A stretch of 64,000 nucleotides of DNA from Pristiophorus japonicus (lineage: Eukaryota): contig NC_091999.1 of the NCBI RefSeq assembly GCF_044704955.1, positions 50,158,001 through 50,222,000 on the forward strand. Direction: 5' to 3'. The notes below the pieces were generated by a model. That model was not told the DNA's origin, ran no database searches, and worked only from the letters and a program-made list of their open reading frames with translations. The number at the start of each line of letters is the position of its first letter. Position 1 is the stretch's first letter. This document shows positions 5,524 to 32,368 of this stretch, piece by piece. Both the position numbers and the translations under genes were made by a program.

Positions 5524-5604
5524 ACTCTTTAAAATGTGCCTCTTTGACCCCCGGTGTCAAATTCTATCTGATAATGCTCCTGTGAAGCACCAGGGGCCAT
5601 TTTA

Positions 5605-6481: not shown

Positions 6482-6615
6482 AAATACTGACATAGTTAGA
6501 GCAGGTTAGCTCAGTTGGAGATGTGAGATGATGCATTTATCAATGCTTAGATATTTTGACTATTCCTCAAAATCAGTAAAATTGTGGAATGTTCAGGTCA
6601 AGGTTCACAGATTAA

Positions 6616-8515
6616 CAATAAGAAATAGGAGCAGGAGTAGGCCATTGTATCCCTCGAGCCTGCTCTGCCATTCAATAAAATCATGGTTGATATGATCTTG
6701 ACCTCAACTCCACTTTCCTGCCTGCTCACCATTACTCTTGACTCCCCTATTATGCAAAAATCTGGCTATCTCCGCTTTAAATATATTGACTGACTCAGCC
6801 TCCACAGCTCTCTGGGGTAGAGAATTCCAAAGATTCACGACCCTCAGAGAAGAAATTCCTCCGCATCTCCGTTTTAAATGGGCGACCCCTTATTCTAAAA
6901 CTATGCACCCTAGTTCTAGATTCCCCCACGAGGTGAAACATCCTCTCTGCATCTACCCTGTCAAGTCCCCTCAGAATCTTACACGTTTCAATAAGTTCAC
7001 CTCTCACTCTTCGAAACTGCAATGAGTACAAGCCCAACATGCTCAATCTTACTTCATAAGACAACCCCTTCATCTCAGGAATCAACCTCGTGAGTTTCTC
7101 TGAACTGCCTCCAATGCAAGTATATCCTCCTTAAATAAGGAGACCAAAACTGTACGCAGTACTCCAGGTGTGGTCTCACGAACACCGAGTACATTTGTAG
7201 CAAGACTTCTCTACTTTTATACTCCATTCCCCTTCAATAAAGGCCAACATTCCATTGGCCTTCCTGATTACTTGCTGTACCTGCATGCTAACTTTTTGTG
7301 TTTCATGCACAAGGACCCCCAGATCCCTTGTGTCCCGCAGCATTTTGTAGTCGCCATTTAAATAATAATTTGCTTTTTTATTCTTCCAACCAAAGTGCAT
7401 AACCTCACATTTTCCCTCATTATACTCCATCTGCCAAATTTTTGCCCACTCACTGAGCCTGTCCATAATACTTTGCTGAATCTTTGTGTCCTCCTCACAA
7501 CTTGCTTTCCCACCTATCTTTGTATCAGCAGCATATTTGGCTGCAGTGCACTCCGTCCCTTCATCCAAGTCATTAACATAGGTTGTAATTAGTTGAGGCC
7601 CCAGCACTGATCCCTGTGGCACCCCACTAGTTACAGTTTGCCAACCTGAAAATGACCCATTTTTCCGACTCTCTGTTTTCTGTTAGTTAGCCAATCCAAA
7701 ATTTATGCTAATATATTACCCCCAACCCCGTGAGCTCTTATATTGTGCAGTAACCTTTTATCTGGCACCTTATCGAATGCCTTCTGGAAATGCAAATACA
7801 CCACTGCTACTGGTTCCTCTTCATCCACCGTGCTCGTTACATCCTCAAAGAACTCGAGCAAGTTTGTCAAACGTGATTTCCCTTTCATAAAACCATGCCG
7901 TCTCTGCTTGACTATTATGATTTTCTAAATGTCCTGCTACTATTTCCTTCATAATGGACTCCAGCATTTTCCCAATGATAGATGTTAGGCTAACTGCTCT
8001 ATAGTTTCCTGCTTTCTTTCTCCCTCCCTCCCTTGTTGAATTGGGGTGTTGCATTTGGGGTTTTCCAATCCACTGGGACCTTGCCAGAATCCAGGGAAAT
8101 TTGGTCGATTACAACCAATACATCCACTTTCTCTGCAGCCACTTCTTTTAAGACCCCAGGATGCAGGCCATCAAGTCCAGGGGACGTCCAACTTTAGTCG
8201 CAATAGTTTGTCTGGTACTTTTTCTCTTGTGATAGTGATTGTTTTAAGTTCCTCGCTCCCTGTGACCCCTTGATTATCTATTATTATTGGGATTCTTTTA
8301 GTGTCTTGCACCGTGAAGACCATACAAAATATTTGTTTAAAGTCTCCGTCATTTCCCTGTTTCTCATTATTAATTCCCCGTCTCATCCTCCAAAGGGACT
8401 AAAGTTTATTTTACCTATCTCTTCCTTTTTATATATCTGTAGAAGCTTTGACTGTATTTATATTTCTTGCCAGTTTACTCTCAATCTACCTTCTCCCTCT
8501 TTATTATTTTTATTA
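6616..8515 (-). mobile_element. CR1 ORF2 (RT) and 3' UTR, disrupted
   Basis: FQKAFDKVP, PQGSVLGPQL, KYAADTK, FKTEMRRNFF in the ORF track; several frameshifts. Confidence 0.92.
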
Positions 8516-8622
8516 AGACAATACTTAAAACCACACGGCAGAAGGAAAGAATGTTCCATAGAAACTAGAATTGTCTCTTCTGAATTTCGATTCTGTACTT
8601 ATTTTGTAAACTCCTTTTGCAG

Positions 8623-9404
<782 letters not shown>

Positions 9405-10649
9405 CTGCAGGGGTTGGATTCTGCTATCATTGCAGCTGTTAATCACATCCCGACTGAATCGTGTCCATTACGACAGTTGAAGTTAGTTTCTGATGATAAT
9501 AACCCTATAATTGGGCTGGAATATAATATTTTGATGTTTCAGTAACAGAGTGTGTCGATATTTAATGTTCCAAGATAAGAGGAGACTAATTGATGTCCTG
9601 TTACTGACTGCACCATTTTGGCGCCTTTTCTCCTTTCTAACTCTGGATTATTTCAGTTCTCATACCTTCGGTTACTCTCGTGGACAAATGCCAGTTCCCC
9701 TTCCCTTCCAGAGTGCCTCTCCTAGCCTTGGCATTGAGGAAAGGTGTCGGTAACATGCCTGGGATCACTGAACACAAAACCCAGTCTGTGAATCACTTTC
9801 AGATACTGGACTTAGTGTCTGTCCAACAGCATCTCTCTCACCTTCGATGTGTGAATGGAGCATCACGCCTGCAAACCTGGGTTTAATTTAAATTTGAATC
9901 CACTCAGGAAATGTATTTAAGAGAATACAGATCACATCAAATAATTGCCAACGGTTTCGAGTCAACAAGATGAACAAGTAAATACATCCCGGCCCAATAT
10001 TCCAGCTCCACATTCACAGGAGAAAGTCTGTTATCAAACTCCTCGAGTAGACAGAATAGAGAACGATGCTGACTCTAAGAATATCTACCATCTGTTGTAA
10101 ATATCTTTCAAATCCTGACTGATACAACCTGGCATTTTCCTTTCAGTTGAAGTGAATGGAAGATGAGAGGGGACTTGGCATAGGGAACTTGGTTAATTCA
10201 GCTTCTGAAAGGTGTTCATTCCATATCGGGGAAAATGTGGTTGTTATCATTAGGGAGAGATTTCACTGAGCAACAGTTGGTGTTTGCACCCAACTGGCTG
10301 TGGATATTTTCATCATAGAATGTTTAGATTAGAAATATTATGCGCGAATAAGAAGAGTTCAAAGACTAGTTGTTTGTGCTTATCACAGGAAGTCTAGTGC
10401 TTCCAACATTGTTGATGTATGTTGAAGAAAATGCAGACTTGTGTCTCTGGACTATGCCGTAGCCAAAGACGACAATATTAGGCAATGCCAGTTCCAGTTG
10501 GATAAGAGGTTGATGGCATAGCAAAAGATCCAGCAGTTAAAACAAAATTATCTCCAGTTATCTGCAGACATCGAATTACGCAGCATGGTCACAAAGTTGG
10601 ACTAAAGAATTTAAAGTATTGAGTTAAATTATTGGGATTGATTGTTATT

Positions 10650-11255
10650 GAATTGAATTGTTATAGAATGGAAAAGTGGTGAAGTTATGCTAAACTTGTA
10701 TCGAACCTTGGTTAGACTTTGTGCGTGCAATTCTGGTCACCATATTATAAAAATGATATGGAGGCACTGGAGAGGGTGCAGAGAAGATTTACAAGGATGA
10801 TACCATAAAGGCGATCGTATACCTATCGGGAAAGGATGGACAGGCCGGGTCTATCTTCTCTTGAAAAAAAAAGGCTGAGGGGTGACCTAATGTCTTTAAA
10901 ATGATGAAAGGTTTTGATAGAGTAGATACAGTGTTTCCACTTGTGGGGACCAGCAGGATTAGAGGCCATCAACATAAGATAGTCACCAAGAAATCAAATA
11001 GGGAATTAAGAAGAAACCTCTACCCAGAGAGTGGTGAGAATGTGCAACTCGCTGCCACAGGGAGGGGTTGAAGCGAATAGTATCGATGCATTTAAGGGGA
11101 GGCTAGACAAGTATATGAGGGAGAAGGGAATCGAGGGTTATGTGGATATAGTTAGATGAGGAAAGAAGTGAGGTAGCTCGAGTGGAGCATAAACGCCGGC
11201 ATGGACTGGTTGGGCCGAATGGCCAGTTTCTGTGTCGTATATCCGATGTAATCCT
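10650..11255 (+). mobile_element. CR1 3' fragment
   Basis: LYRTLVR...QFWSP...ALERVQRRFTRMIP...RLRGDL motifs plus 3' UTR. Confidence 0.88.
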
Positions 11256-13029
11256 ATTGTCCAAGTCACACTGCTCGAAGGGGAAGATAAATGACTTGCA
11301 TTCAAACGCAATTGTTACTTTTGTCTTCTTGGTAAAATGACCATGTCTGGGCATAATTTGTTTGTGAAATTAATACTGATTTTATATATATATATATATG
11401 TATTGCAAAGCGTCGCTGGTCAAACACATGGGAAGGAAAATTTAGCTGAAAATTGAGATCATTAAGTTTTATTTTTGAAAAGGTCCCGTCTCTGTGGTTC
11501 TGTCCAAACTATGTATTCAGTAATAAGTTTTTGGGGGTGACTGTTATGCTAAAGGTAACTAACATCCTTCCTCTTGTAGACTGAATTGCTCTCTGACATA
11601 TTTTGGAGAATAAAAGGTCCAAGAAGAGGTTTGGTTAAATAAAATTAAACAAAGAAACTGGGTCAAAACTTGAACCAAGTGGGATTATTTGATCGATGTT
11701 TAAAGAAAGTATGATAATATTGTATTAGACAGTAAAGTTCCTAAGGGCTCATGAATGAAATGGTGAACACTGTATAAAATGTAATGAGAGGAAATGAGTG
11801 AGGATATACGAGGAAAACAGGAAAGTTACACCTCCAAATAGAAATGTTTCTTAACTCATTGTCATAAATCACCTGGGTACAATCTGGTGTTAATGTAAAT
11901 TCTTGTTAAAGTCAGGGAAGTGTAGGAAATTGCTAAGATTTCTCTCTCAGATGTTTGTGTCATTGCCTACACTGAACAATAAGAAAACTGAATTAAATCG
12001 CCTGGCCACTACCCCAGACATCGGGACTGTGCAGAGGGAGATGAACAAAGATCTTCAGACACCCCACGATCTTTTGATAAGTACACCTCAAATGGCTTGG
12101 ATCAGATGTCCCATTGGGCATGATACTGTGATACCGCTGCGTGTGTGTGTGAACGAGTCTCAGGCATGCTCCGTTATCGACAACAGCACAACATGAAATG
12201 GCTAATGTGGCTCAGGAGAGTGAGAGAACTTTTTAAACCATCAAGGCCGTGACACATTCTCCATAGAAAATGCGACTTTGAAATAATCATGATGGAGTTA
12301 AACACACTGCTACCTGTCAGAGGCATTAGAATTAACAGTGGCGAGAATGCTGATCAAATTAGGATTTCCTTACAGCTAGAATGGTCGTCAGTTTCAAGGC
12401 CTCCACTAAGTACTGAACAAAGAAAGCTTGTAGAGGGGCTAAAAACAAAAGAAGCCAGCCTGTCTGTGTCTGGACAAGGTGGCCATGGCTGTGTACAGAT
12501 CAGCTACAAGCTGAAGGTGGGAGATAAAGAGGCCAGACCTCACAGGCTCCATAACAAAACATGAATCCAAGTGAGAGGCCATCTCCAGCAGGAAGCAGAG
12601 GACCTCAAAAGGGATAGTTTTGGAATCGTGATAAACCGAGGTATAGACCCTCAAAAGCATCATTTTAGTGGTAATAGAGAAAGAACCCTAAAGCCTGCTC
12701 CTTGGAAAGATTGGGAGACCAGGAAGACCCCCCTGAACCAGGTGGGTTGGGACACATCCTGACCCCAAACACTAAATTAATAGTGTTCACTTAAAGAGTT
12801 AGTATCACACCAGGACAATAAGTAATTCAAGAACATTATGTCATACTTCAATACAAACTTAAAAGGTAATGACAGCAGGTTATTTTAAAGTAAGAAATGT
12901 CGTATGTTGATCAGTAATGTTAACTATTGGTTTGCCAAGTACAAACGCTGATAGTGATCATCATATGTGGGACTTAAATAAAATGACATCCCACCTCACA
13001 AAAAGACTCGACCTGTCCCATCCAGTAAA

Positions 13030-14500
13030 AGAACCCACATTTTATGGACTAGAAGTAACTGAATCAGGAAATGTATTATCTAACAATGTGTGTTTTTAAA
13101 TTGTGAATTGAAATCAAAAGATTTAAACATGAGCTTGAATCGATCAACTAGATTATGTGAAGGGAGATATTCACAGTTAATAGACAAAATTGGAAGAGAA
13201 TTAGTAAAGGATGTGTTAGTAAAGAATAGAACACAGGAACCAAGGGATGAGGAAGATGGGGAAAACAAGGAGAAGCTGTTTAATTCGACAGTAAAGTGAC
13301 AGCTGACAGGATAGCTCAGAATAGGAGCCACAGCAAGGTTAGCAGGAGTAAACAGAATAGATACAGAAAGTGAATGGGAACACGATGTGGCTTACTGGTG
13401 GTATTGTGTGTAGCCTCTGTGACATTTATGATGAATGTGGTACAGAAGGGACTAGACAAGAGAGAGAGTAATCAAATTCCTTTGTTTATTCATGAAGGAC
13501 AACTGAGAAAAAGGTTTCGGGGAACCAAGTCATAGGCTTTGATGTGATGCAGCCAATAGGAATGGGGATTTGTCCCCTAAGGAAGGAGAAAGAAGTGAAG
13601 ATATTAGACCAGTGGGATTGGTCTTGCCTTTGCTGAGGAAAAATAGAAATGAAACGAAACCTTGGACGGTGTATCGGGTAGAATCGTTTTCAAGGGTGGA
13701 AGACTGAGTTAGGTCCGATCCATAAACAGTGTGAGGAATATCCAAGATATCTGATTCAGAAGGGAGGAACTTGGATAGCACCAGATAAGCAGTGTTGTAC
13801 TCTGAAAGGAGCAACATGGCTGTAGCATTGACGGGGAAGGAGGTGATCTGTATAAAGAATTCGAAGGGGTAAGCTGCAGGACAAGTTATAACGAACCACA
13901 AAAGGCTGAAAACCAAGGGTGGGATAGGTGTATTGCCTGAAAAAGAAGGAATACAACTAAAGGGAGAGTGTACCCCAGCGATCGTTAGAGGAAATATACG
14001 GCGTATGACCTGAAGCGTGACATGGTAATAACACAGTGAAGCTGGTATTGATCGTGTGTAGTGTAAGCAAAAAGGAATTCGAGCTAAAATGTGGGGTGGG
14101 ACCCCAGGATCCTAGGAAAACTGGCCAGTGGGATAAAATGCAAGCTAAAATAAATGGAAAATTATTAAAAGAAAAGAAAAATGTTGGAAAAGCAAATTGA
14201 ATTTACAAAGGACAGTTAGTTTTTACCAAAAGATACAAATGCGAACTTGAAAGCTGCAGCAGCTTGAAAGAGAAACAAAGATGTTGAGGAAAATGGACTG
14301 GAGGAAGATCATCAAATTACAAAAACGAATTTGAAGAAATGAGATTTAAATTGGCTGTGAAAAAGATATTGGTTTAAATATAAAAACTTACGAGTTAAAC
14401 CCGACAAAGCTTTGTGCTGAGAAAGAGAAACAACGATGTTTAACGATGGACTGGAGTAAGGTCATCAAAAAATGATTAAGTTCCGATTCAAAAGGGGGAA
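13030..14500 (+). mobile_element. Decayed LTR-retroelement env-like remnant ending in a candidate polypurine tract
   Basis: Pieces across frames: FYGLEVTESGNVLSNNV; IGATARLAGVNRID; PVGLVLPLLR..PWTVYRVE (13609); EYPRYLIQKGGTWIAPDKQCCTLKGATWL* (13736-13825); hydrophobic LVLIVCSV at ~14042; AAAAGGGGGAA at ~14490. Confidence 0.45.
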
Positions 14501-15629
14501 AAGTAGTAAGCTAGGCGAACTCAGCACAGAAAGAAAAAACTGGGAGTTACAGAATTCTTAAAAACGATGGACCGGCACCGAAGTTTAGATTTTGTGCTGA
14601 GAGAAATAAAACACAAGATTTGCTCAGTAAACGGGATCGTAAAAAAACCAAACTGCTGGAATGTATATAGATTGCGTGGAAATTGGATTTCTGTAAACAG
14701 AATAGCTATTAAAAATGTGTGGTCTCGCTTTAAATCAATGAAAAACTCGTTGGCAAGTATTTGAATTGGATGTGTAGAGAAATTGGAGTTTAATCTAAAA
14801 TGCTGCCTTTCCTGATGAAAACGTTTTATTATGACAACTTTACTAATAATTTCTGCTATTTTAACGGATTCCTAATTTCTTATCAAGTTTTGAAAGCACA
14901 AAGACTTGGGGAAATATTTTCAGATGAATACCCGAAGTCACGTAATTACGTCAGACCTTCTTACAAACCTGTAGTGGAATTAACCCATTCCATTGACAGC
15001 TGTTTTATTTATACTGGACATTATCAGTTTGGATTTCTTAATAAAAGAAAGAAGACTTACCCGACAGACAGAGGACATGGTGGGATAGTCAGAATAAAAA
15101 TAAAATGAAGAAAGGCGATGCAATAATACTTGCCTGCTACAGAGGAGAGATAGATACTCAAACAAAACAAAAGTTAGCAGCCCGTCTGCCTGTGGACTGC
15201 AAATTTACAGAGCGACCTTCCTCACCCCGACCCTTTCGGCCCAGCAGACCATGCCAGAGTTTACTCCATCATCACGTCCTGATCTTAAACGGAGTGCACA
15301 AAGAGAGTGGTCAACATGGGAACGTAGGGAAAGTGAGATTCGGTGGTAAGTCCGTGGTGAGTCTAGCTGAGTATTAGCTGTAAGAAGGGAAATTTAGATT
15401 AAAGTTTTGAATTGAACTTAGAACTTTAAATACAGAAATTAGCAGAAACTGCCTGTTAGTAGTAGTTAACCACCAGTCAGCTGTAAGTGTTAGTCTGAAA
15501 TAGGTGCTAATTACTGCCAGCAATGGGCATGGAGCTGAGACAGCTCTTGTAATTTGTGTGTGGCTCCAAAGATATAAAACTAAACACTGACTTGTGATTC
15601 TCAGTGTGTTCTGCACAGTGATATTAAAC

Positions 15630-16860
15630 GGAATTTGGTGAGAGTTTGAATGGGAACAGTGGTTGAAGGAGGTGCTGCTTTGGCCTCCAAATTACAGCCG
15701 GTCGATGAACGTTTGGTGAGTATTACCTTTTTTCTCGAAGCTTGGTCTACACTAAGACCTGGGAGCAATAACAATACTTTATTAAATTAATAATTTAACT
15801 ATAATTACTAATTAATTAATATCATTATAAATAACCATTGAATAAAAACTAAGTAATTAAATTAATTCAGTGTGTAAATAAGCAAATAAATTTATAAAAA
15901 AATAACTAAAGATGGCAGGGTAGACAATGAGTCGAGACTGTAGTGTGTATGAGTTTGTGGACATCAAATCTGTCCCACTTTCCCACATCTGCAGGAAATG
16001 TCTCTGCTTTATTCACTCTGGCTCAGCGCAATTGGGCTGGAGTGCGAGTTCGACACACTCTGAAACACACAGGATAAGTGATATAATCCAGAAAACAGTC
16101 ACATCCCACAGAAAAACGCAGGTTCAGGAAAGTCCGTGGTTGATTGGGTGCCGTGTAGCGATAACTGAGGAGAGGCTGAGAATGAGATACTGCTCCTGCC
16201 CAACGATAAGGATAAAGATTGCGTGGAGGACATCCACAATACATACCAAGGTACGTCGCTCATAAGGTTGTCCACAGGCAGAGATAGGAAGAAATATTAA
16301 ACAATTACTTTGCATCAGTATTTATCAGGGAGTCAACACAGGTGGACATGACATTGGATGATATTAGAAATGAAATAAATGCATTTAAAATAACAAGAGG
16401 GAAAATATTATATAAACTAATCAAACCGAAATTGGATAAAATGCCGGCTTCGGACAAATTACATCGAGGGAAGAGATAGCAGAGGCATTAAGAAACATAT
16501 TTAATACTTCGTTAGAATAAAGTGCAGTGCCGGAGGATTGGCAGATACCTAATGTAACACCTATTTTTAAGAAGGGAGGTAGAACGTGTCTGAGGAACTA
16601 TAGTCCAGTCAACTTAACATCGTTGGGAGGAAAAATAATGGATTCCCTACTAAAGGAGAAGGTGGAAGAACAACTTGAAACCAAAAATGAATAGTCAGCA
16701 TGGATTATAAAAGGGAAAGTCTTGAATTGACCAAATTCTTTGAATTTTTCGAAGAAGTAACAGATAGCGTAAACTAACGTAATGTAGTAGATGTAATTTA
16801 TCTAGATTTCCAAAAGCCTTCGATAAGATACCCCATAATAGATTGAAAGGGCAGAACAAA
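15630..16860 (+). mobile_element. Old CR1, 5' UTR/ORF1 zinc-finger start plus ORF2 pieces
   Basis: DCSVYEF...HICRKC (CR1 ORF1 N-terminus); WQIPNVTPIFKKGG...NYSPVNLTS; YLDF. Confidence 0.75.
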
Positions 16861-17339
16861 AATTATAATTACAATTAATAATAATAATTGGGATGTTTTA
16901 AAATGGAGTTAGCAGATTTTTAAAATGGATCCCACAGCCTGTTTTTCAATCAATGGGAAGCATGTGTGGGATGCCATCCGCAGAGGGTCAGATGTTCCAA
17001 TGCGTAGACCAAAGGTCTTGGGAGCTGGGCACAGACACAGATAACATCGAATTTGAATTCTGTAATACGATACAAGTTAAATAAAAAGAATCATAACAAC
17101 ACGTATCCTGAATTAATAATTAAACCTATAGAGGCCAGATTGGAGGAAGCAACCTACCAGATAATCATGTATTAATCAATCAGCACGTATTAATTGTAAC
17201 TTGCCTATTTAAGTAAGACTATAATCTGAAACTTTATAAAATAAGATGTCTCTGGCAGTTTCTCTGAGCATTCCTTCAAGGGTAGCTCACCTGTCAGCTT
17301 GTATCTCCGAGTGGTGGTTTGAAGTTAACTCTAACAACG

Positions 17340-17357
17340 TGGCGCAGTCAACAGGAT
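17340..17357 (+). other. Primer-binding site complementary to the tRNA-Ser 3' end
   Basis: TGGCGCAGTCAACAGGAT vs TGGCGTAGTCGGCAGGAT expected for GTAGTCG-type tRNA-Ser+CCA (15/18), just after a CA dinucleotide. Confidence 0.8.
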
Positions 17358-19591
17358 CTATTCGACGGGCAGATTAGACTCAAAAAGCCAAACCAACCGA
17401 ATAACGAGTGAGTAGAGAATTACCTTGAGAAATTCTCCTCGCAAAGTAACCAGATATCCAACGAATCTGAGGTAGAGTCCATGCAGCCAGTAAATCCAGT
17501 TGAGGGGCGCGTCAGGACAATGTAAATAAGTACTCTAATTGTTGGGACAATAAGTACGCATACGGGATATCGGGGAAAAAGCCTCAGTGTAAATATTTCC
17601 GCATAATTAAAGGTGGAAAAACAGCACTAGTTAAAAAGCATTGGTTTAAAAAGTTCTGCTTAAGTAAAGATGGTAAAACAGGAACTGGGGAAAAAGCCCC
17701 AATGTCTGAAATGGCAAAGGAATCTGCCAAGGCCCTTGGAGGGCTTCGGTATAAACTACCAGAAGAGTTTCTGAGAGATACATCTGAAAAGGTCATAGAG
17801 ATGGTTAAGGCAGGATATGATGAAGGGAAAAAGATAATTTTAACAGCCGGAAAGATGAATAGAAAGATACCCGAAGGTGAGATGGACAGAGAAAGTGACA
17901 AAAGACAACAGGATGTAAGTATAAAAATAGATATAGATGACAGAAGAGAATGGACAGAGGAATTTGGCCCAAATTTGTATCCCACACTAACAGGGTTATG
18001 ATTAGGACTGAGGAAAATAAAGGATTGATTGGGGGCCAGAAGGCTCGCTGAGTAGATATTTTTCGTAAGTCCATAACACAAAATGTTAGTGACTATCTTA
18101 AGTGAAGTATGGATCCAAAAATAGAGCCGGCCAAACAATAAGCTTTGTTGAATGAAGAGAGACTTTTGTGAATGTCTGTCTTTGAATGAAAGTGCTTGTG
18201 TGATTTTTGGCTGCGAAATATTTGAGGTGGGAATTAATGAATTTTTCATGTGTCTGTAAGCCTGCTTCAGAAAGTGGTAGAGCTGTCTGTTGTTATGGCT
18301 CCACCCACTTTTTCAGAAAGAGTGATTTGTTTTAACCCTTTGCAGTGTTGTCCTGTATGAAGGAAGTTTTAAGAAAGTGTGAACCTAGATTTGAATTACA
18401 TTTTAATTTAGAAACCCAGGTGTGGATTTATTCAGATGATATGTTATGGAGCTAGGAAATGCACAAAGGATAGGTTTGTTGAGCAAAAGATAAAAAATGT
18501 GTGGTCCCGATGGTTTAAAAAAAACATTTCGACACGCTCACTTGTCAAAAGAAAACATGTAATCATTGATTACATTTGTTTGAAAGACAATACATTTCGT
18601 CTAGGAATGAGATAAAGAACGGAGAAGGGAAATTGTAATGCCTTAAAAAAAGAATCCTGCGTGGGTGACTCAAGGCTGCGGTCTTGGGAAGTACGCCCCC
18701 ATATTTCTTTGTGTAAAATCTTCATGCGAAAGCTTCGAGCTCAGTAAAAATATTTTTAAATAAAAGATTGGCATATTTGAATTGGGATTTTGAGATATTT
18801 GTGGTGATTCTCCTTGATAAACATTTTGGTTGTATTGGAAAATCTTGGGTTTGGAAGACTTTTAATAAAAGTAAACATACTGCGGCAGAAGCTGAAGCTT
18901 TAAATAATTACATTTATGAGATACTGTATCACAAAATTGCAGTTACAGCGCAAAAGATTCGAGTTTCTGATGTTCAGCTTCTAAAGCAGAAGTGAGGCAC
19001 ATAATTATAAAAAAAGTAATTTGCATTCTGTGATCTGTGAATCACTATAAGCATAAATGATAAGTCCGATTAAAAAACAGTATTATCATATTTGACATTT
19101 CATAATCCAACAATAAATACAAATACTACAAAAAGGGAGCAGAAATTAGGATGGAAGCAGTGAAGAGTTAATTTTGTTGTGAAGATTTCAAGTACAACTA
19201 TTTAAGAAAATACGCAACAAAATTAGATACATTTAAAATCAAAAGTTAAATCTGATCTCTTAAAAAAAAGAAATAAAACTATAATGTTTGGAAACAATGT
19301 AGAAATACCTTCAGGGATCAGGTCAAACTCCTGGGCAAGTGGGGAGCTATCTGCGAAATTGCAAAAGGAATTTTGAAAAAAATTAAAGATTAAAATGGCA
19401 GGCTTTAGCACTTTAGAACAAAGGAAAATATAAGTTGAACTTGTGACTTCAGATACGGTGGTTGAAGAACCATAGAAACTGAGACGTAAAGGCTATGAAA
19501 CTGGAGCATTTGAGACAACAGAAAGCAGTTATCAAAGCCTACGTGCTAGACTCTGTTCTAGTAATGAAAAATACATTTGAGATAATGGAAA

Positions 19592-19840
19592 GCAGGATGT
19601 AAACTAAATCCCAAAAAGGCACAAATCGTACAATTTGTGGTACAGTACCTGGGACACGAAATATCCCAAGGAAATCGGACCATGTCCAATGTCGGGAAGG
19701 AGGGCATTAGGATTATGCCCCGACCAAAACCAGTCTGAGGGGTTTGTAAGGTACTGGGGTTCTTTAGCTATTGTAGGAATTTTGTGCATAACCACAGCAA
19801 TTGCAGAACCAATACAGTGGCTAGTGAAAGGAAAATCCGG
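19592..19840 (+). pseudogene. pol: Retroviral pol fragment (RT palm end and thumb)
   Basis: AGCKLNPKKAQIVQFVVQYLGHEISQG...MPRPKPV*GVCKVLGFFSYCRNFV, then a frameshift to AIAEPIQWLVKG; matches the KKAQI..V.YLG and LG...YCR motifs of LTR/retroviral RT. Confidence 0.88.
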
Positions 19841-20129
19841 TTGAAATGGAAATGGTAAGACTCTAACTAAAACCTGGAATATCCAAGATGTGCTTTATCA
19901 ACAGAATATAAACGTGATCATCACCTTCCTTCCGATTCTACAAGGACAAGCTACAAGGCCGCCCCGAGGGGGCCCAGAAGCATTTAACCACAGCGGAGGG
20001 TACAACAACTACATAAAGCAGCATCTAGGGGGCGGCATCTAAGTGTCGGGAGCGTTTGTCTTGAAGCCATAAGATAAGTGTGTAAAAAATGTTACCTGAA
20101 TATTGTAAACCAGGGGAATTAACCTTGGG

Positions 20130-20768
20130 AAATAGTTAAACCTGGAACAGAAGTAATGTTGTTATTTGACAATGTGTAGCATGAAATGTTACCTGTGAGC
20201 ATAAATTAATCAGCCAGAAAAAAATAACCACAAGACTAAAGCGTTGTAAATACGATTGCTAGACACAATCCTGAGAATATCTAGCGACGCATCAGGAGCA
20301 AGGGAGTAACACAAGAAGCTGAGACACAAAGAAGGAAGACAGAGGAGATATACAGCGAATGACGTCTTAACTTTAAAGGGACATCTCTAGTAGTTGCACC
20401 AGATATAGAGGCGATCCAGGCAGGTGTAGAAAGTTTGAGGGGAACAACGGAGTTACTAATCAGGAAACAGGCCAGGATTGGGATAGAATCTTCAGAGTTA
20501 GGATCTAAAACATCCCAAAAAAATGCTAGAGCGTGTAGCCGTATTGGAAGGCCATGCACGAAAAATTAACGAGCAAAATAAGCAGGAATTGAGAGGACGA
20601 TGCCGAGGACAGGAAAAGAGACACATGTCATGCTGATGGGAGATGGATGATTGGTCAGGTGAGACACGATATGGATCAGATACAAACCGGGCGAGTTACA
20701 GGTACAATAAATAGCACCCAGTTGAAAGAAATGGCACAGCACACTGGGCCATTAGATGCATGCACCCT
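20130..20768 (+). pseudogene. env: env remnant (furin site, fusion-peptide-like and heptad-like segments)
   Basis: EIVKPGTEVMLLFDNV*HEMLPVSIN; RQRR at 20337-20348 then YTANDVLT; frameshift to GTSLVVAPDIEAIQAGVESLRGTTELL; MLERVAVLEGHARKINE; WMIGQVRHDMDQIQTGRV. Confidence 0.6.
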
Positions 20769-23700
20769 GAAACATAGAAACATAGAAACATAGAAAACTG
20801 TTGCGGGAATAGACCATTCGCCCCTTCGAGCCTGCACCAACATTCAATAAGATCATGGCTGATCATTCAACTCAGTACCCCTTTCCTGCTTTCGCTCCAT
20901 ATCCCTTGATCCCTTTACCTTAAGGGCCATATCCAACTCCCTCTTGAATATATCTGATGAACTGGCATCAACAACGTTCTGCAGAAGAGAATTCCACAGG
21001 TTAACAACTCTCTGAGTGAAGAAGTTTCTCCTCATCTCGGTCCTAAATGGCTTATTCCTTGTCCTTAGATGTGACCACTGGATCTGAACTCCTCCAAAAT
21101 CGGGAACATTCTTCCTGCATCGAACTTGTCCAGTCCCATCAGAATTTTATATTTTTCTAAGGTCCCCTCTCAAGCGTCTAAACTCCAGTGAATACAGACC
21201 CAGTCGATCCTATCTCTCCTCTGATGTCAGTCCTGCCATCCCGGAAATCAGTCTGGTGAACCTTCGCTGCACTCCCTCAATAGTAAGAACGTCCTTCCTC
21301 AGATTAGAACAAAACTGAATACATTATCCCAGGTGAGGCCTCACCTAGGCCCTGTACAGCTGCAACAACACCGCTCTGCTGCTATATTCAAATCCCCAAG
21401 ATATGGGGCCAACATGCTATTTGCCTTCTTTCTGTCTGCTGCACCTGCATGCCAACCTTCAATGATTGATGTACCATGACACCCGGATCTCGTTGCACTT
21501 CCCCTTTGCCTAATCATCCGCCATTCAGATAACATTCTGCCTTCGTGTTTTTGCCAAGAAAATGCATAACCTCACATTTATCGTTATTACACGACATCTG
21601 CCACGCAATTGCCCACTCACCTAACCTGTCCAAGTCACCCTGCAGCCTCTTAGCATCCTCCTCACATATCACAACGCCATCCAGCATCATGTCATCTGCA
21701 AAATTGGAGATATTAGACACAATTCCTTCATCTAAGTCATTGATGTACATTGTAAATTGCTGGGGACCCAGCACTAAGCCATGCGACACCCAACTAATCA
21801 TTGCCCGCCATTGCGAAAAGAACCCGTTTATCCCGACTCTGTCAGCCAGTTCTCTATCCACATCAATACATTACCTCCAATGCCATGTGCTTTAATTTTG
21901 CACACCAACCTCTTGTGTGGGACCTTGTCAAAAGTCTTTTGTAAGTCCCACTACACCACATTCACTGGTTCTCCCTTGTCCGCTCTACTAGTTACATCCT
22001 CACAAAATTCTAAAAGATTTGTCAAGCATGATTTCCCTTTCATAAATTCATGCTGATTTGGACTGATCCTGATAGTGCTTTCCAAATGTGCTGCTATTTC
22101 ATCTTTAATAATTGATTACAATATTTTCCCCACTACTGATGTCAGGCTAACTGGTCTGTAATTACCTGTTTTCTCTCTCCCTTCTTTTTCAAAATGTGGT
22201 GTTACATTCGCTAACCTCCAGTCCATACGAACTGATCTATAGTTGATGGACTGTTAGAAAATGATCACCAATGCATCCACTATTTCTCGGGCCAATTCCT
22301 TAAGTATTCTGGGATGCAGACCATCAGGCCCCGGGGATGTATCGGCCTTTAGTCCCATCAATTTTCCGAACAAAATTTCCCACAAATAAGGATTTCCTTC
22401 AGTTCCTGCTTCTCACTAGCCCCTCGGCCACGTACTATTTCCAGAAGGTTATGCGTGTCTTCCTTCGTGAATGCAGAGCCAATGTATTTGTTCAACTGGT
22501 CTACCATTTCTTTGTTCCCCATTATAAATTCACCTGAATCTGACTGCAAGGGACCTACGTTTGCCTTCACTAATCTTTTTCTCTTCACATATCTATAGAA
22601 GTGTTTATGTTCCCAGCAAGCTTCCTCTCATACTCTATTTTCCTCCTCCGAATTAAACCCTTTGTCCTCCTGTGCTGAAATCTAAATTTCTCCCCGTCCT
22701 CAGGTTGATGCTTTTTCTGACCAATTTATATGCCTCTTCCTTGGATTTAACACTATCCTTAATTTCCCTTGTTAACCACGGTTGAGCCACCTTTCCCGTT
22801 TTATTTTTTTTACTCCAGACAGGGATGTCCAATTGTTGAAGTTCATCCATGTGATTTTAAATGTTTTCCATTGCCTATCTGCCATCAACCCTTTAAGTAT
22901 CATTTCCCAGTCTATTCTAGCCAATTCATGTCTCATACCATCGAAGTTACCTTTCCTTAAGTTCAGGACCCCAGTCTCAGAATTAATTGTTTCACTCTCC
23001 ACCTTAACAAATATTTCTACCTTATTATGGTTACTTTTCCCCAAGGGGCCTCACACAACAAGATTGTTAATTAGTCCTTTCTCATTACACATCAACCAGT
23101 CTAGGATGGCCAGCCCTCTAGATGGTTCCTCGACATATTGGTCAAGTAAACCATCCCGAATTCACTCCAGCAAATCCTCCACCGCATTGCTACCAGTTTG
23201 GTTAGTCCAATCTATATGTAAATTAAAGTCGCCCATGATAACTTCTGTAGCTATATTGCACACATCCCTGCTTTCTTGTTTGATGCTGTCCCCAAACTCA
23301 CTACTATTGTTTGGTGATACACAACTCCCACTAGCGTTTTCTTCCCTTTGATATTCCGCAGCTCCACCCACACAGAATCCACGCGAATGTCCTTCCTTAC
23401 TATTGGGTTAATTTCCTCTTCAACCAGCTATGCCACCCCACCTCCTTTTCCTTTCTGTCTATCTTTCCTGATTGGTGAATATCCCTGGATGTTGCGTTCC
23501 CAGCCTTCGTCACCCTGGAGCCATTTCTCTGTGATGCCAATTACATCATATTCATTCATTGCTGCCTGTGCAGTTAATTTGTCCACCTTATTACGAATAC
23601 TCCTCGCATTGAGGCACAGTGCCTTCAGGCTTGTTATCTTAACACACCTTGTCCCTTTATAATTTTGCTGCAAAATGGCCCTTTTTGATTTTTGCCTTGG

Positions 23701-24055
23701 GTTTCTCTGCCCTCCACCTTTACTTTTCAGCCCCCATTTTACTTCCCTCTGTCTCCCTGCATAGGTTCCCATCCCACTGCCATATTAGTTTAACCCCTCC
23801 CTAACAACACGAGCAACTCTCCCCCGTGGACATTGGTTCTGTCCAGGTGCAGAGCGTCTGGTTTGCACTGGTCCCAGCTCCCCCTGAACCGGTTCCAATG
23901 TCCCAGGAAATTGAATCCCTCCATTCTGCACCACACATTCATCTGAGCTATCCTGCGATTCCTACTCTGACTAGCAGGTGTCAGTGGTAGCTATCCTGAA
24001 ATTGCTACCTTTGATGTTCTATTTGTTAACTTAGCTGCAGGATCCCTAAATTCAG
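20769..24055 (-). mobile_element. CR1, near-complete ORF2 plus end of ORF1, disrupted
   Basis: (CATAGAAA)n tail at ~20770; CLNARSIRNKVDKL (ORF2 start), IMGDFN, NFADD, RRNFFTQRVVNLWNSL. Confidence 0.93.
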
Positions 24056-24267
24056 CTCATAATTCCTCAGACAGAGTGAGTCAGACTCAAACACAAACAC
24101 ATAAAGAGCTCTCTTAACACAGAGAGTGAGAGGCACAGAAACATTGCATGATCCCATTTCTTTGTCAGTTGAGAATGTTATAAAATTATCGACATGTACA
24201 GATTCAACAGAATACATTTGCGTATTACTGAGCAGGATGGGAGGAAATCGGTTTGAATTTAAAGATT

Positions 24268-24351
24268 TACCAAGAGTGGGGTATCGAACCCACACAGCTA
24301 TACACCCAGTGGATTTTATGTCCAACGCCTAACCCACTCGGCCATCCTGGT
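24268..24351 (-). pseudogene. tRNA-Leu(TAA) pseudogene
   Basis: ACCAGGATGGCCGAGTGG body; U33>A, anticodon-stem mismatch, altered T loop. Confidence 0.85.
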
Positions 24352-24778
24352 TTTGTCAGTATTCGGATTTTGTCTCTGTGAGAATCTGGGCTGCAGATCC
24401 ACTCTCACAGACATCGGTTTTCAATGAGCATTTTCAAACATTTGTAGTAATATTGACACAGGGGCAACTCTCCTATTCTTTTTCGAGTAATGCTCTGGGA
24501 ACTTTCACATCTACCCGAGGGTGCAGACGGAGATTCAATTTAACATTTCATCCGAAAGTCAACAGCTTCAACAATGCAAAATTGCCCAAGTACTGCATTT
24601 GAGCGTCAGCCAAGATTATATGCTCAAGTCTCAAGAGTCGGACTGACACACACAACCTCCTGATTCAGCCGAGAATGCTGCCACTGAACCAAAGCTCACA
24701 TCCGTATTACTTTCCACAAGTCTTTTTCTAAAGTTCCAGGACATTTTGAAGCAATATTCAACATTTTGAAAAAGCTCC

Positions 24779-24850
24779 ACCCTCGTCAAGGTATTGAACC
24801 CCGACCTCACGCGTAATAGGAAGGGATACTAACTACTACACTAACGAGGA
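24779..24850 (-). pseudogene. tRNA-Asp-derived pseudogene
   Basis: TCCTCGTTAGTGTAGTAG... body; anticodon reads ATT; stems broken. Confidence 0.8.
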
Positions 24851-25574
24851 ACTGACGGGCATTTGTTTTGTCAGAGCAGGAATCGAGCTGTGAACAGAAC
24901 TGGACACCATGAAAAGGCGACAGGCACTTTGAGAGACAGAGACTTCCGACAAACAGGGAGAGACAGACAGCGAGATAGAGACAACGCGAGACAGAAAGTA
25001 TGAGACTGAGAAGGAGAGGCAGACTGAGTGAGAAAAAGACACAAACACACACATATACAGAGATGTGTGTGTATGTGCTCTTTAAAGAGAGAGAGGGAAA
25101 GAGTGAGAGAAAGACAGTGACAAAGACAGTGACAAAGAGAGAGACAGAGAAAGAGTGAGCGACAGATAGAGAGATAGACAGAGATATAAACAGAAATTGA
25201 TGGAAATACTCAGCAGGTTAGAGGCAGTAACTAACAGAGACAGGCAAAGAGAGAGACAGGTAGAGACATGGACAGACAGAGATGATGGGAATGAGAGCGA
25301 CAGTCAGACAGAGAGACTGAGTGAATCCCATTGGAACAGAACTGGACATCGTGAGAAAGAGACAGATACGTTGAGAGACAAGGAAACAGGGAGAGACAGA
25401 CAGCGAGAAAGAGACAAAGAGAAACAGAGACTTTGAGACTGAGATGGAAGGTCAGACTGAATAACAGAAAGACTCAAACACATACATATACAGAGATGTG
25501 TTTGTGTGCTCCATAAAGAGAGGGAGGCAAATAGTGATGGAATGGCAGGCACAAAGACAGGAACAAAGAGAGAG

Positions 25575-27980
25575 CCAATTCATATAATGCATACGGGACT
25601 GTTTCTTAGAACAGTATGTAACAGAGCCTAAAAGGGAGCAAGCCATCTTGAATCTGGTCCTGTGTAATGAGACAGGAAAAATAAACGATCTCCTCGTAAA
25701 AGATCCTCTCGGAATGAATGATCACGATAAGGTTGAATTTGTAATACAGATTAAGGATGAGGAAGTTGTATCAGAAACGAGGGTACGATGCTTAAACAAA
25801 GGGGACTACAGTGGGATGAGGGCAGAGTTGGCTAAAGTAGACTGGAAACAAGGACTAAACAGTGGCACAATTGAGGAACAGTGGAGGACATTTAAGTAGC
25901 TCTTTCATAGTGCGCAAAAAAAATATATTCCAGTGAAAAAGAGGGGAGGCAAAAGAAGTGATAACCATCCATGGATAACCAAGGAAATAAAGGAGAGTAT
26001 CAAATTAAAAACCAATCCGTATAAGGTGGCCAAGGTTAGTGGGAAACTACAAGATTGGGAAAATTTTAAACGACAGCAAAGAATGACTAAGAAAGCAATA
26101 AAGAAAGGAAAGATAGATTACGAAAGTAACTGGCGCAAAATATAAAAACAGATAGTAAAAGCTTTTACCGATATATAAAACGGAAGAGAGTGACTAAAGT
26201 AAATGTTGGTCGCTCAGAAGATGAGAAGGGAGATTTAATAAGGGGAAATGTGGAAATGGCTGAGACATTAAACAATTATTTTGTTTCCGCCTTCACAGTG
26301 GAAGACACAAAAACAAAGCCAAAATTTGCAGGCCACAGGAATGTGGGAAGGGAGGATCTAGAGACAATCACTATCACTAGGGGAGTAGTGCTGGACAGGC
26401 TAATGGGACTGACGGTAGACAAGTCCCCTGGTACTGATGAAATACATCCCAGTGTACTAAAAGAGATGGCTGAAGTTATAGCAGATGCATTCATTATAAT
26501 CTACCAAGATTCTCTGGACTCTGGGGAGGTACCAGCGGATTGGAAAGCAGCTAATGTAACGCCTCTGTTTAAAAAACGGGGCAGGCAAAAGGCAGGTAAC
26601 TAAAGGCCGGTTAGTTTAACATCTGTAGTGGGGAAAATGCTTGAAACTATCATTAAGGAAGAAATAGCGGGACATCTAGTTAAGAATAGTGCAATCAAGC
26701 AGACGCAGCATGGATTCATGAAGGGGAAATCATGTTTAACTAAATTACTTGAATTCTTTGAGGATATAATGAGCATGGTGGATAGAGGTGTACCGATGGA
26801 TGTGGTGTATTTAGATTTCCAAATGGCATTCGATAAGGTGCTTCACAAAAGGTTACTACAGAAGATAAAGGTACGCGGAGTCAGAGGAAATATATTAGCA
26901 TGGATAGAGAATTGGCTGGCGAACTGAAAGCAGAGAGTCAGGATAAATGGGTCCTTTTCGGGTTGGAAATCAGTGGTTAGTGGTGTGCCACAGGGATTAG
27001 TGCTGGGACCATAACTGTTTACAATATACATAGATGACCTAGAAGAGGGGACAGAGTGTAGTGCAACAAAATTTGCAGATGACACTAAGGTTAGTGGGAA
27101 AGCGGGGTGTGTAGAGGACTCAGAGAGACTGCAAGGAGATTTGGATAGGTTAAGCGATTGCGCTAAGGTTTGGGAGATGGAATACAATGTCGGAAAGTGT
27201 GAGGTCATCCACTTTGGGAAAAAAAACAATAAAAGGGAATATTATTTGAATGGGAAGAAATTACAACATGCTGTGGAGCAAAGGGACCTGGGGGTCCTTG
27301 TGCATGCATTCCAAAAGCGAATGGAATATTGGCCTTCATTGCGAAAGGGATGGAGTACAAAAGCAGGGAGGTCTTGCTGCAACTGTATAAGGTATTGGTA
27401 AGGCCGCACCTGAGTACTGCGTGCAGTTTTGGTCACCTTACTTAAGGAAGGATATACTAGCTTTGGACGGGGTACAGACACGATTCACTAGGCTGATTCC
27501 AGAAAAGAGGGGGTTACCTTATGATGATAGATTGAGTCGACTGGGTCCTTACTCCTTGGAGTACAGACGGATGAGGGGTGATCTTATAGAAACATTTAAA
27601 ATCATGAAAGGGATAGACAATATAGAGGCAGAGAGATTGTTTCCACTGGTCGGGGTGACTAGAACTAGGGGGCACAGCCTCAAAATACGGAGGAGTCAAT
27701 TTAAAACCGAGTTGAGAAAAAATTTCTACTCCCAGAGGTTTGTGTATCTGTGGAATTCTCTGCCAAGGAAGCAGTTGAGGCTCGCTCATTGAATGTTTTC
27801 AAGTAAAAGATAGATAGATTTTTAATCAATAAGGGAATTAAGGATTACGGTGAGAGGGCGGGTAAGTGGAGCTGAGTTCACGACCAGATCAGCCATGATC
27901 TTATTGAATGGCGGGGCAGGCTCGAGGGGCTAGATGGCCTACTCCTGTTCCTAACTCTTATGTTCTTATGTTTTTATGTT
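25575..27980 (+). mobile_element. CR1, 5'-truncated ORF2 to 3' tail, inserted in the first array unit
   Basis: QHGFMKGKSCL, YLDFQMAFDKV, KFADDTK; (TTCTTATG)-type tail at ~27955-27980. Confidence 0.93.
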
Positions 27981-28032
27981 CAAAGGGGGAGACAGATAGA
28001 GAGAAAGACAGATATAGAGAGAGATAGAGACA

Positions 28033-30000
28033 ATAATTCGGTTCTGTCTTTACAAAGGAAGATACAAAAAACCTTCAAAATGTACTAGGGGCCTGTGAGT
28101 CTAGTGAGAATGAGGAACTGAATGATATCCTTATTGGCGGGAAATTGTGTTCGGGAAATTGATGGGAATAAAGGCCGATAAATCCCTGGGTCCTGATAGT
28201 CTGCATCCCAGAGTACTTAAGGAAGTGGCCCTAGAAATAGTGGATGCATTGGTGATCATTTTCCAACAATCTATCGACTCTGTATCAATTCCTATTGACT
28301 GGAGGGTAGCTAATGTGATGGCACTTTTTTTTTAAAAGGAGGGAGAGAGAAAGCGGGTAATTATAGACCAGTTAGCCTGACATCAGTAGTGGGGAAAATG
28401 TTGGAATCAATCATTAAGGATGATATAGCAGCCCATTTGGAAAGCACTGACAGGATCGGACCGAGTCAGCATAGATTTATGAAAGGGAAATCATGCTTGA
28501 CGAATTTTCTGGAATTTTTTGAGGATGTAACTAGTAGAGTGGACAAGAGAGAACCAGTCGATGTGGTGTATTGGGATTTCAATAGGCTTTTGACAAGGTC
28601 CCGCACAAGAGATTGGTGCACAAAATCCAAGCGCATGATATTGGAATTAATGTACTGACCTGGATAGAGAACTGGTTGGCAGACAGGAAGCAGAGAATCT
28701 GGATAAACAGGTCATTTTCAGAAATGCTGGCAGTTACTAGTGAGGTGCCGCAGGGCTCAGTGCTGGGACCCCAACTCTTTACAATATACATTAACGATTT
28801 GGTTGAAGGAATAGAGTGTAATATCTCCAAGTTTGTGGATGACACTAAACTGGGTGGTGGTCCGAGCTGTGAGGAGGATGCTAAGAGGCTGCAGGGTGAC
28901 TTGGACACGTTAGGTGAGTGGGCAAATATATGGCAGATGCAGTATAATGTGGATAAATGTGAGATTATCCATTTTGGGGGCAAAAACACGAAGGCAGAAT
29001 ATTATCTGAATGGCGGCAGACTAGAAAAAGGGGAGGTGCAACGAGACCTGGGTGTCATGGTTCATCAGTCACTGAAAGTGGGCACGCAGGTACAGAAGGT
29101 GGTAAAGAATGCAAATGGAAAGCTGGCCTTCATAGCTAGGGGATTTGAATAAAGGAGCAGGGAGACCTTACTGCAGTTGTACAAGGCCTTAGTGAGGCCA
29201 GACCTGGTATATTGTATTCAGTTTTGGTCTCATAGTCTGAGGAAGGACGTTCTTGCTATTGAGGGAGTGCAGCAAACCAGTTGCCAAACAGTTCTCTATT
29301 CACGTCAGTACATTAATCCCAATACCATGCACTTGGACTTTGTACACCAATCTCTTGTGCGGTACCTTGTCAAAAGCCTATTGAAAGTCCAAATACACCA
29401 CATCCACTGGTTCTCCCTTGTCCACTCTACTCGTTACATCCTCAAAAAATTCCAGAAGATTCATCAAGCATGATTTCCCTTTCATAAATTCATGCTGACT
29501 CGGTCCGATATTGTCAACAGACTGATTCCAGGGATGGCAGGACTGTCATATGAGGAGAGATTCGATCAACTGTGCCTTTATTCACTGGCGTTTAGAATGA
29601 TGAGAGGGGATCTCATAGAAATATATAAGATTTTGACGGGCCTGTACAGGTTAGATGCGGGAAGAAAGTTCTCGATGTTCGGGAAGTCCAGAACTAGGGG
29701 ACATAGTCTTAGGATAAGGGGTAGGCCATTTGGCACTGAGATGAGGAGAAACTTCTTCACTAAGAGAGTTGTTGACCTGTGGAATTCCCTGCCGCAGAGA
29801 GTTGTTGATGCCAGTTCATTGGTTATATTCAAGAGGGAGTTAGATATGGCCCTTACGGATAAGGGGTGAAGGGGTATGGAGAGAAAGCAGGAAAGGGGAA
29901 CTGAAGGAATGGTCAGCCATGAACATAGTGAATGGCGGCGCAGGCTCGAGGGGCCTAATGGCCTAATTCTGCAGCTATTTTCTATGTTTCTATGTTTCTA
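28033..30000 (+). mobile_element. CR1, 5'-truncated, with an internal inverted segment
   Basis: VPQGSVLGPQLF, KFVDDTK, RRNFFTKRVVDLWNSLP; (TTTCTATG)n tail at ~29980-30000. Confidence 0.93.
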
Positions 30001-30417
30001 AAACTGAAAATGATGAAAATACTCATCAGGTTAGAGACAGGGACAAAGTGAGACAGGCAAAGACATGGGCAGAGATGATGGGAAAGAGAGAGACAGTCAG
30101 ACATAGAATCTGAGAGAATCCTATTGGAACAGACGTGGGCACCGTGAGAAAGAGACAGATTGAGAGACAGAGACAAACAGAAAAACAGGCACAAACAGAG
30201 TGAGTCAGGGAGAGGCAGACTCAGACTCAAGCACACAAACACATGCACAGTTCTCTAAAGACAGAAAGGCAGAGACTGAGATACACAGATACATTTCACA
30301 ATTTCATTTCATTTTCGGCTCAGAATGTCACAGAGCAACAGAAAATTGTTGATTCTGCAGATGAAACTCAGGTATCACTGATCAGCATGGGGCAAAATCA
30401 GTGATAAATTAAAGAGA

Positions 30418-30499
30418 TTCGAGGAGTGGGGACCGAACTCGCGTGGGAAAATCCCATTGAATTTTAAGGCCAACGCCTTAACCACTCGGCCACCCTGGT
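30418..30499 (-). pseudogene. tRNA-Leu(TAA) pseudogene
   Basis: Leu body with anticodon stem TTGGC/TTCAA and a damaged T arm. Confidence 0.85.
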
Positions 30500-31252: not shown

Positions 31253-31334
31253 CGTAGTCGGCAGGTTTCGACCTTCAGCGGAAAAATACGATGGATTTTC
31301 GAGTTTATCGCTGTAACCTCTTGGTCACGACTAC
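31253..31334 (-). pseudogene. tRNA-Ser pseudogene (CGA-like anticodon)
   Basis: GTAGTCGTG...CTGCCGACTACG ends intact, interior degraded. Confidence 0.82.
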
Positions 31335-31523
31335 TGACTCATTAGTTCTTTAAATGTTACTCAGATAAAACTCAATCATCCACCTCTCTGCAGCAGATGA
31401 CACAGAATTCTGAAAAAATCTCCTCTTCCTATATTTTTACTATTCTGCATTGCACTGGAACTTTTTAATATGAATCTATACCAAGAAACAGAAGTAAAAT
31501 CCTACATTTTGAAAAAGCTTCCT

Positions 31524-32336: not shown

Positions 32337-32368
<32 letters not shown>

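Follow-up and report, generated by a model that had tools for sequence, protein, structure and literature searches.

What kind of retrovirus left the broken element at about positions 16890 to 20769 of a 64,000-nucleotide stretch of the shark Pristiophorus japonicus (NC_091999.1, positions 50,158,001 to 50,222,000, forward strand; hereafter the window, numbered from its first letter)? A preliminary description of this DNA had proposed a lokiretrovirus-like endogenous element, or a member of a related unnamed lineage, with a tRNA-Ser primer binding site, a retroviral reverse transcriptase (RT) and an F-type (fusion-protein-like) env. We read the element as one copy, dead and with internal deletions, of an endogenous retrovirus (ERV) that is present many times over. 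Its RT remnant falls among canonical retroviruses but not in class I; it likely belongs to the class III group of cartilaginous fish that is related to snakehead retrovirus (SnRV), and its env remnant is likely F-type (paramyxovirus-like) and related to the Env of lokiretroviruses. We give this reading a probability of about 0.62.

Organization of the element

The retroviral parts that were recognized lie on one strand and in canonical order: the end of a long terminal repeat (LTR), a tRNA-Ser primer binding site, the start of Gag, the palm and thumb of RT, and the 5' half of env. The 5' LTR remnant (16890-17336, +; the start coordinate is approximate) ends in CTAACA at 17331-17336, and no matching TG...inverted end was found at its start. 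A 3-nt spacer separates it from the 18-nt primer site (17340-17357, +), which matches the window's own tRNA-Ser(AGA) gene (34518-34599, minus strand) plus CCA at 15 of 18 positions. Sites with at least 15/18 matches to tRNA-Ser number two in the window, the primer site and the tRNA gene itself, against five in total in 200 shuffles. Further on, a Gag N-terminus remnant broken by stops (18024-18140, +) aligns over 18027-18074 to the shark protein P0007, with DWGPEGS identical to P0007 residues 13-19; 2 of 500 shuffles aligned as well. No gag or pol homology was detected over the ~1.4 kb between the Gag-start and RT remnants (18160-19580), where a candidate relic of a zinc knuckle (19327-19389) lacked significance, with 256 of 500 as good. 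The RT remnant (19586-19846, +) follows, and then the 5' half of a likely F-type env (20129-20769, +), which may start upstream, at about 19900.

Most of gag-pol has gone: the Gag-start remnant and the RT fragment are the only stretches that could be aligned to relatives. This deletion, and an ERV with a Ser primer site, had both been claimed in the preliminary description and are borne out. Its statement that env remains has to be corrected, as about the 5' half is left, cut at 20769 by the tail of a minus-strand long interspersed nuclear element (LINE). No remnant of protease, RNase H or integrase passed the search in the window, a self-blast of 14000-26000 found no second LTR in it, and Rfam gave no matches in 15500-25500. 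This copy is unable to make viral protein today, save possibly from an open frame in its leader.

That frame, of 165 codons (17504-18001, +, with a Met at 17702), lies upstream of the Gag-start remnant and is open in an otherwise stop-riddled element. It contains an internal duplication (17576-17639 and 17633-17697, 75% alike), and the opposite strand is open too, for 242 codons (17584-18312). It is possibly a pre-gag accessory frame. The frame had no credible Pfam match, and its single-sequence fold was uninformative (pLDDT 36).

Placement of the RT remnant

The RT piece is an 85-codon remnant of the palm end and thumb. A single stop interrupts it in frame, and the reading frame shifts near 19800. 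Both motifs named in the preliminary description were located in it, KKAQI at 19613-19627 and YCRNF at 19769-19783. Against solved structures in the PDB the fragment matched murine leukaemia virus (MuLV) RT with E 1.8e-6, foamy virus RT with 2.8e-6 and Ty3 RT with 0.21. A HMMER search over 1.84 billion proteins returned 106 matches, every one of them to RT. The RT and env pieces drew a blank in word-index protein searches, and a further one over proteins of 2145-5000 residues gave four unhelpful rows. The nearest relatives are P0001, P0002, P0006, P0007 and P0033 at 48-54% identity and P0008 at 46%, the best matches spanning 65-71 residues. Three near relatives are named by species, two from Heterodontus francisci (P0006, P0007) and one from Scyliorhinus canicula (P0033). 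P0007 comprises a Gag with two CCHC knuckles, an RT with LPQG and a tether-like domain. It is closest to MuLV among solved structures (4e-63), followed by foamy virus (3e-42) and Ty3 (2e-32), and its tether-like domain, a region deleted in the window copy, aligns better to MuLV than to Ty3. LPQG or LSQG is present in the two near relatives that retain that part of RT.

Lokiretroviral RTs look different at these places. In the part of the supplement of Wang and Han (2021, PMC7947760) available to us, PFG and K-x-Q-W are each present in 24 of 24 loki RT rows. The window RT has KAQI in place of K-x-Q-W, and G-N-R, of the retroviral G-x-R form, where nearly all lokis have G-x-x-P. KKAQI is gammaretrovirus-like in those alignments; in the same supplement KKAQ occurs 13 times, and the nine places displayed are gammaretroviruses and cauliflower mosaic virus. 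The loki thumb motifs were found in none of the 119 stored proteins.

Two trees were built. Tree 1 has 48 rows, the window fragment and 47 HMMER matches hand-picked to span motif types. Tree 2 has 30 rows with SnRV added (10,688 bases; its RT is identical by eye to the published row). Motifs, together with three bird or mammal names, served to label the class I-like rows, and no class II row was included. Tree 1 placed the window fragment in a seven-row clade with the shark relatives (97/92) nested in canonical retroviruses (100/100), and tree 2 kept that clade at 88/93. The class I-like rows formed a separate clade in both (100/99 and 98/99), and the Gypsy-type rows, 27 and 11 in the two trees, were split off by a 100/100 branch. 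The RT remnant falls inside canonical retroviruses and outside class I and Gypsy, in trees made without loki or foamy rows.

The lokiretrovirus label of the preliminary description fails on RT, the gene that defines the group: the RT here has KAQI and canonical retroviruses as its nearest relatives. A Ty3/Gypsy element (Metaviridae, including the F-env errantiviruses) was rejected on that 100/100 branch and on the E value of 0.21 to Ty3 RT.

Relation to SnRV and other class III elements

The Gag of P0007 aligns in its C-terminal half to SnRV Gag, with 68 identities over 220 columns and a score of 147, against 33-54 for five other Pol proteins. This knuckle Gag of the SnRV kind is that of P0007, a relative linked to the window copy by RT and by the Gag-start remnant; in the window copy itself the knuckle region is undetectable. 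The window element shares with SnRV a canonical RT and the K-x-N-P-K-K start of the thumb, and its relatives also share NGFW/NGFF and LPQG. The SnRV primer site, by contrast, is not Ser-like by eye. SnRV Env resembles the window remnant by eye in its furin site, its heptad and its lack of an immunosuppressive domain (ISD), and differs in having about 620 residues before its last furin site.

Parallels for the primer region come from Callorhinchus milii, whose CmiERV lineage I was published as SnRV-like (Han 2015, PMC4422223). It is a class III ERV of a cartilaginous fish with the same CTAACA LTR end, 3-nt spacer and tRNA-Ser primer site, and it has G-x-K-L-N-P in RT. Its Gag motif VDWG-x-L-x-EEAV-x-Y is common to P0007 by eye. 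It differs in the thumb of its RT, where it has the G-x-R-P form that belongs to another subgroup. Another class III element is XtERV-S of Xenopus (Yedavalli et al. 2021, PMC8278194); its primer site is of the tRNA-Ser(AGA/TGA) type, and its env comes from a different lineage. It differs in its ERV-L-like gag-pol with dUTPase and without a zinc knuckle, and in its gamma-type transmembrane protein. Most chondrichthyan ERV RTs are reported as clade III (PMC11089739, in part), and clade Huo, which comprises SnRV and its ERV kin, spans all vertebrate groups (Xu et al. 2018, PMC6001957, in part); the SnRV clade is treated also in the accessible part of PMC12193657. With the SnRV-like Gag in P0007, the CmiERV parallels, the Ser primer site of XtERV-S, the prevalence of clade III and the breadth of clade Huo, we take the provirus backbone to be of a known kind. 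Cartilaginous fish were already known to harbour class III ERVs that have Ser primer sites.

The env remnant

The preliminary description had claimed an F-type env with a furin site. The furin motif RQRR (20337-20348, +) is there, followed by an amphipathic heptad-like stretch at 20378-20570, and the F type is quite probable, judging from the motifs discussed here. The gene is not an open reading frame as it had been taken to be; its pieces are spread, with stops, across all three forward frames, and the hydrophobic fusion peptide after RQRR is short or decayed. The description's fallback of a related unnamed lineage comes near the truth for env only.

The F-type assignment draws on a motif-chain test, in which six residue-class blocks were defined from 12 of the 23 printed loki Env rows and all six frames were scanned for collinear chains. 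The best chain over both strands of the window (128 kb) is anchored on RQRR at 20337 and scores 38.6. This score was equalled by 1 of 1000 local shuffles, by 1 of 500 column-shuffled patterns and by 0-2 of 136 real tiles over nine parameter settings. The matched pieces, by eye, are EIVKPG (20129), G-T-S-L...I-E-A-I-Q-A-G-V-E-S-L (20378), V-L-E-G-H-A-R-K-I-N (about 20541) and M-I-G-Q-V...G-R-V (20647). The last two blocks lie ~68 and ~113 codons from the furin site, against ~72 and ~121 in a loki row. Eleven further loki Env rows show the same blocks by eye, unscored. Loki Env (PMC7947760, PMC9040795) shares with the remnant a short chain starting near (E)-I-V-x-P-G, an R-x-K/R-R site, a heptad, and V-L-x-x-H-x-x-x-I/L-N and M-x-x-x-V...G-R-I/V blocks at similar spacing; it differs in that its fusion-peptide and ITNC blocks are unmatched in the window.

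An alternative cleavage site, RLKR at 20233-20244, was set aside because the motif chain favours RQRR. Neither an ISD nor CX6CC was found in any forward frame of 20349-20769, the 140 codons after the furin site. On this ground and on its place outside the class I-like clade, a class I (gamma/epsilon) ERV was rejected. Within 19850-20130 (+), between RT and the first env motif, a frame of 65 codons (19845-20042) includes a brief hydrophobic run along with a motif for N-glycosylation. These may be the signal peptide and a small head domain of env.

The env of SnRV itself (7703-9010 of its sequence) shows by eye, in its C-terminal half, a furin site, a heptad, motifs in loki order and no ISD, a likeness that was not significant in tests. 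SnRV Env had no credible Pfam match and chance matches only in the PDB, and the single-sequence fold of its core was uninformative (pLDDT 36).

Copies in read data and proposed history

Copy data come from contigs of four runs from at most two samples, one of them possibly the source of the window, and summed contig depth is not equal to copy number. Many diverged copies are present: at the listed element sites 4-61 contigs of run X1 show other letters, and the listed contig pieces diverge by about 10-17%. In the same run the interior at 18113-18514 has a summed depth of 80,000-250,000, against 3,000-15,000 in most LTR, RT and env bins. This segment, common to a far more abundant repeat, is thus ten to fifty times deeper than those bins, and in other copies a stretch of roughly 18156-18599 is passed over. 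The segment may represent either a distinct repeat of high abundance or the central part of a non-autonomous derivative. Diverged contigs cover 19934-20107 and 19949-20156, in the gap from RT to the first env motif. The 5' homology edge of RT is crossed by one diverged contig, record 30 of run X5 (19543-19792), which has 23 other letters and is free of gaps; as that edge may lie anywhere in 19568-19595, the bridging is marginal.

From the relatives and from general retrovirology, we infer a parent virus whose reverse transcription would have been primed by host tRNA-Ser, whose RNA would have been packaged by a two-zinc-knuckle Gag and whose RT would have been MLV-like with a tether domain. Entry would have relied on an F0-like precursor that furin cleaved to yield a short F2-like chain plus an F1-like one, the heptad repeat of which drove fusion. 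The virus would then have integrated in the germline and been amplified, possibly as a non-autonomous derivative, the deleted form being copied in trans. This copy now lacks most of gag-pol and has accumulated stops as well as breaks of frame; the 3' parts, env and LTR, would have been lost later, at the CR1 insertion.

Weighing of the explanations

Several results weigh against the reading of a class III backbone with an F-type env. The RT fragment is small, its 68 residues filling just 21-22% of tree columns, and loki and foamy rows are absent from every tree. Identities counted by hand over 64 positions fail to discriminate (SnRV 22, MuLV 22, three lokis 19 each, feline foamy virus 18). LPQG is known from the relatives, not from the window copy. 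In tree 2 the shark clade is not the sister of SnRV; it joins SnRV, class I and the other NGF-type rows in a polytomy. For env, the pieces had no credible match in Pfam and none in protein-library or 1.84-billion-protein HMMER searches; two pieces gave no usable match in Atlas, and three gave chance matches only in the PDB. Neither PF00523 nor any other fusion protein was matched; what was found is the collinear loki-like blocks at RQRR. The blocks were picked from loki Env with the window already in view, and two of the six (A2 and the fusion peptide) are unmatched. Shuffled 64-kb windows reach a mean best score of 37.7, about equal to 38.6; with the whole-window null not exceeded, the chain score counts only because the RT remnant had fixed its place beforehand. 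When block B2 is dropped, 9-45 of the 136 tiles score as high. Compared pairwise, the window env and SnRV Env show no significant similarity (p about 0.2), the best local alignment being 20620-20769 in register at SnRV residues 704-748; nor is SnRV Env singled out by the loki blocks (63/500). CmiERV lineage I, by eye, carries a gamma-type env with ISD and CX6CC in the published parts consulted. The span from RT to env is contained in none of the listed contigs.

The dependence of the env chain on one block, the failure to beat the whole-window null and the blank database searches would all be expected if a class III ERV had carried another env type after its RT, or if decayed sequence there matches by chance. 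Published class III ERVs of frogs and chimaera do have gamma-type env, as far as those sources were available. We nevertheless hold this explanation to be unlikely, because the best chain of 128 kb falls on RQRR at the env position, with four blocks collinear and at loki-like spacing, and because gamma-type hallmarks are lacking in the 140 codons where they would be expected. A local composite, in which recombination or a nested insertion had joined a class III LTR-gag-RT relic to an env piece from some other, loki-like element, with no viral lineage of this gene content behind it, would account for RT and env pointing to different relatives, for the patchwork interior with its very uneven depth and for the lack of a listed contig spanning the element. 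The parts share a strand and the canonical order, their LTR, RT and env bins are of same-order depth, and diverged contigs cross the gap between RT and env, so that we consider a composite very unlikely.

It is highly improbable, in our judgement, that the element is a true lokiretrovirus of cartilaginous fish, with a loki RT as well as a loki F-type Env. Such an origin would suit the env motifs, which fit loki Env better than SnRV Env, as well as the K-A-Q and LGHE common to amphibian lokis and the fragment, the hand identity of 19/64 to lokis against 22/64 to SnRV, and trees that contained no loki row. The RT tells otherwise, with KAQI and, in two near relatives, LPQG/LSQG where K-x-Q-W and PFG are invariant in the 24 loki rows, with G-x-R for G-x-x-P, with its nesting in canonical retroviruses and with no loki-type protein among the 119 stored. 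Loki hallmarks also include an Env like the F protein of Mononegavirales (PF00523), with signal peptide, RxKR, fusion peptide, coiled coil and TM, a dual RNase H (tether plus RH, the tether closest to Ty3 RH) and an integrase closest to CGIN1/NYNRIN (Wang and Han, PMC7947760, in part). In this copy the TM half of env is absent and no signal peptide was identified; an integrase remnant is absent from the window and from the six nearest relatives, and smc is likewise not present in this copy. In the first 300 of the 318 pages of that supplement no Ser(AGA)-type primer 10-mer was seen at loki LTRs, where line breaks could hide one. Cartilaginous fish are not among the loki hosts reported in the parts seen. 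The preliminary description had named lokis mainly from other groups (lampreys, bony fishes, amphibians and reptiles), in agreement with the table of Wang and Han (PMC7947760), which in its accessible part has six cartilaginous-fish genomes without a presence mark.

We give almost no credit to a foamy-like ERV (spuma, clade Tu), the Env of which folds like F. The RT fragment scores foamy and MuLV RT equally, and the available part of Fernandez et al. (2024, PMC11468914) describes foamy viruses as canonical retroviruses with a structurally F-like (class Ib) Env and cites a foamy ERV of cartilaginous fish. P0007, on the other side, is far nearer MuLV than foamy in RT and has two CCHC knuckles, which spumavirus Gag lacks (PMC8278194, in part). 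Foamy Env further differs, in the sources seen, by its leader peptide and large receptor-binding insert, in place of which the window has a short chain before the furin site.

Implications for retroviral Env

Wang and Han found, in the part of PMC9040795 available, no detectable similarity between canonical Env and loki Env and preferred independent Env acquisitions. F-like Env is already known in lokis, foamy viruses (PMC11468914) and invertebrate errantiviruses, according to the parts of the literature seen, and since foamy Env is F-like, an F-type Env is not exclusive to lokiretroviruses. Surveys of anamniote Env covered gamma- and beta-types only (10.1101/2021.11.23.469661, as far as consulted). 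Our literature search, whose coverage stopped short of subscription journals and Repbase, turned up neither a canonical class III ERV bearing a loki-like F Env nor any lokiretrovirus of cartilaginous fish. Scans of viral and metagenome contigs with RT, env and primer-site queries were blank, one of them returning SnRV itself only.

We suggest, at slightly less than even odds, that cartilaginous fish carry canonical non-foamy retroviruses with a minimal loki-like F Env, one that resembles loki Env more than it does the Env of any known canonical retrovirus. If this is true, and with foamy Env also F-like, an F-type fusogen would either have been present in the ancestor of retroviruses or have passed between the loki and canonical lineages, contrary to the independent origins preferred in PMC9040795. 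A canonical SnRV-related shark retrovirus with such an Env would be a third data point, and the origin of Env could be tested by phylogeny and structure. Such a retrovirus also cautions against taking an F-like env as a marker of lokiretroviruses. The decay of the present copy is too far advanced for it to support that reading by itself.

Genomic surroundings

The window is rich in LINEs. The one that truncates env, outside the provirus, runs from 20769 to 24030 (-), and its (GAAACATA)n tail adjoins env; we take it to be of CR1 type from its ORF2 motifs and tail. Left of the LTR, also outside the provirus, lies a decayed fragment (15920-16846, +), presumably CR1-type too, with blastn matches to other LINE copies of the window. 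Two young LINE copies at 45858-47234 and 56974-58359 (-) keep open RT frames of 458 and 461 codons and are partly 95% alike.

From 24068 to 42450 there are ~3.3-kb repeat units, 75-90% alike, with tRNA-Leu(TAA) genes and the single tRNA-Ser(AGA) gene at 34518-34599; a tRNA-Asp-like sequence is seen by eye near 24810-24880. The region represents a cluster of tRNA genes in decay. Two exons for immunoglobulin heavy-chain constant domains (C1-set) stand at 43596-43961 and 49918-50319 (+), the second of which seems to enter a secretory-tail-like end, so that the element lies near an immunoglobulin heavy-chain cluster. These exons mark the host as a jawed vertebrate, and the named relatives of the RT remnant point to a cartilaginous fish. 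At 60492-60914 (-) there is a fragment of a rhodopsin-family G-protein-coupled receptor (Pfam 7tm_1, E 8e-4). Minisatellites occupy 405-812 and 43126-43613, with 34-base (GC-rich) and 38-base units.

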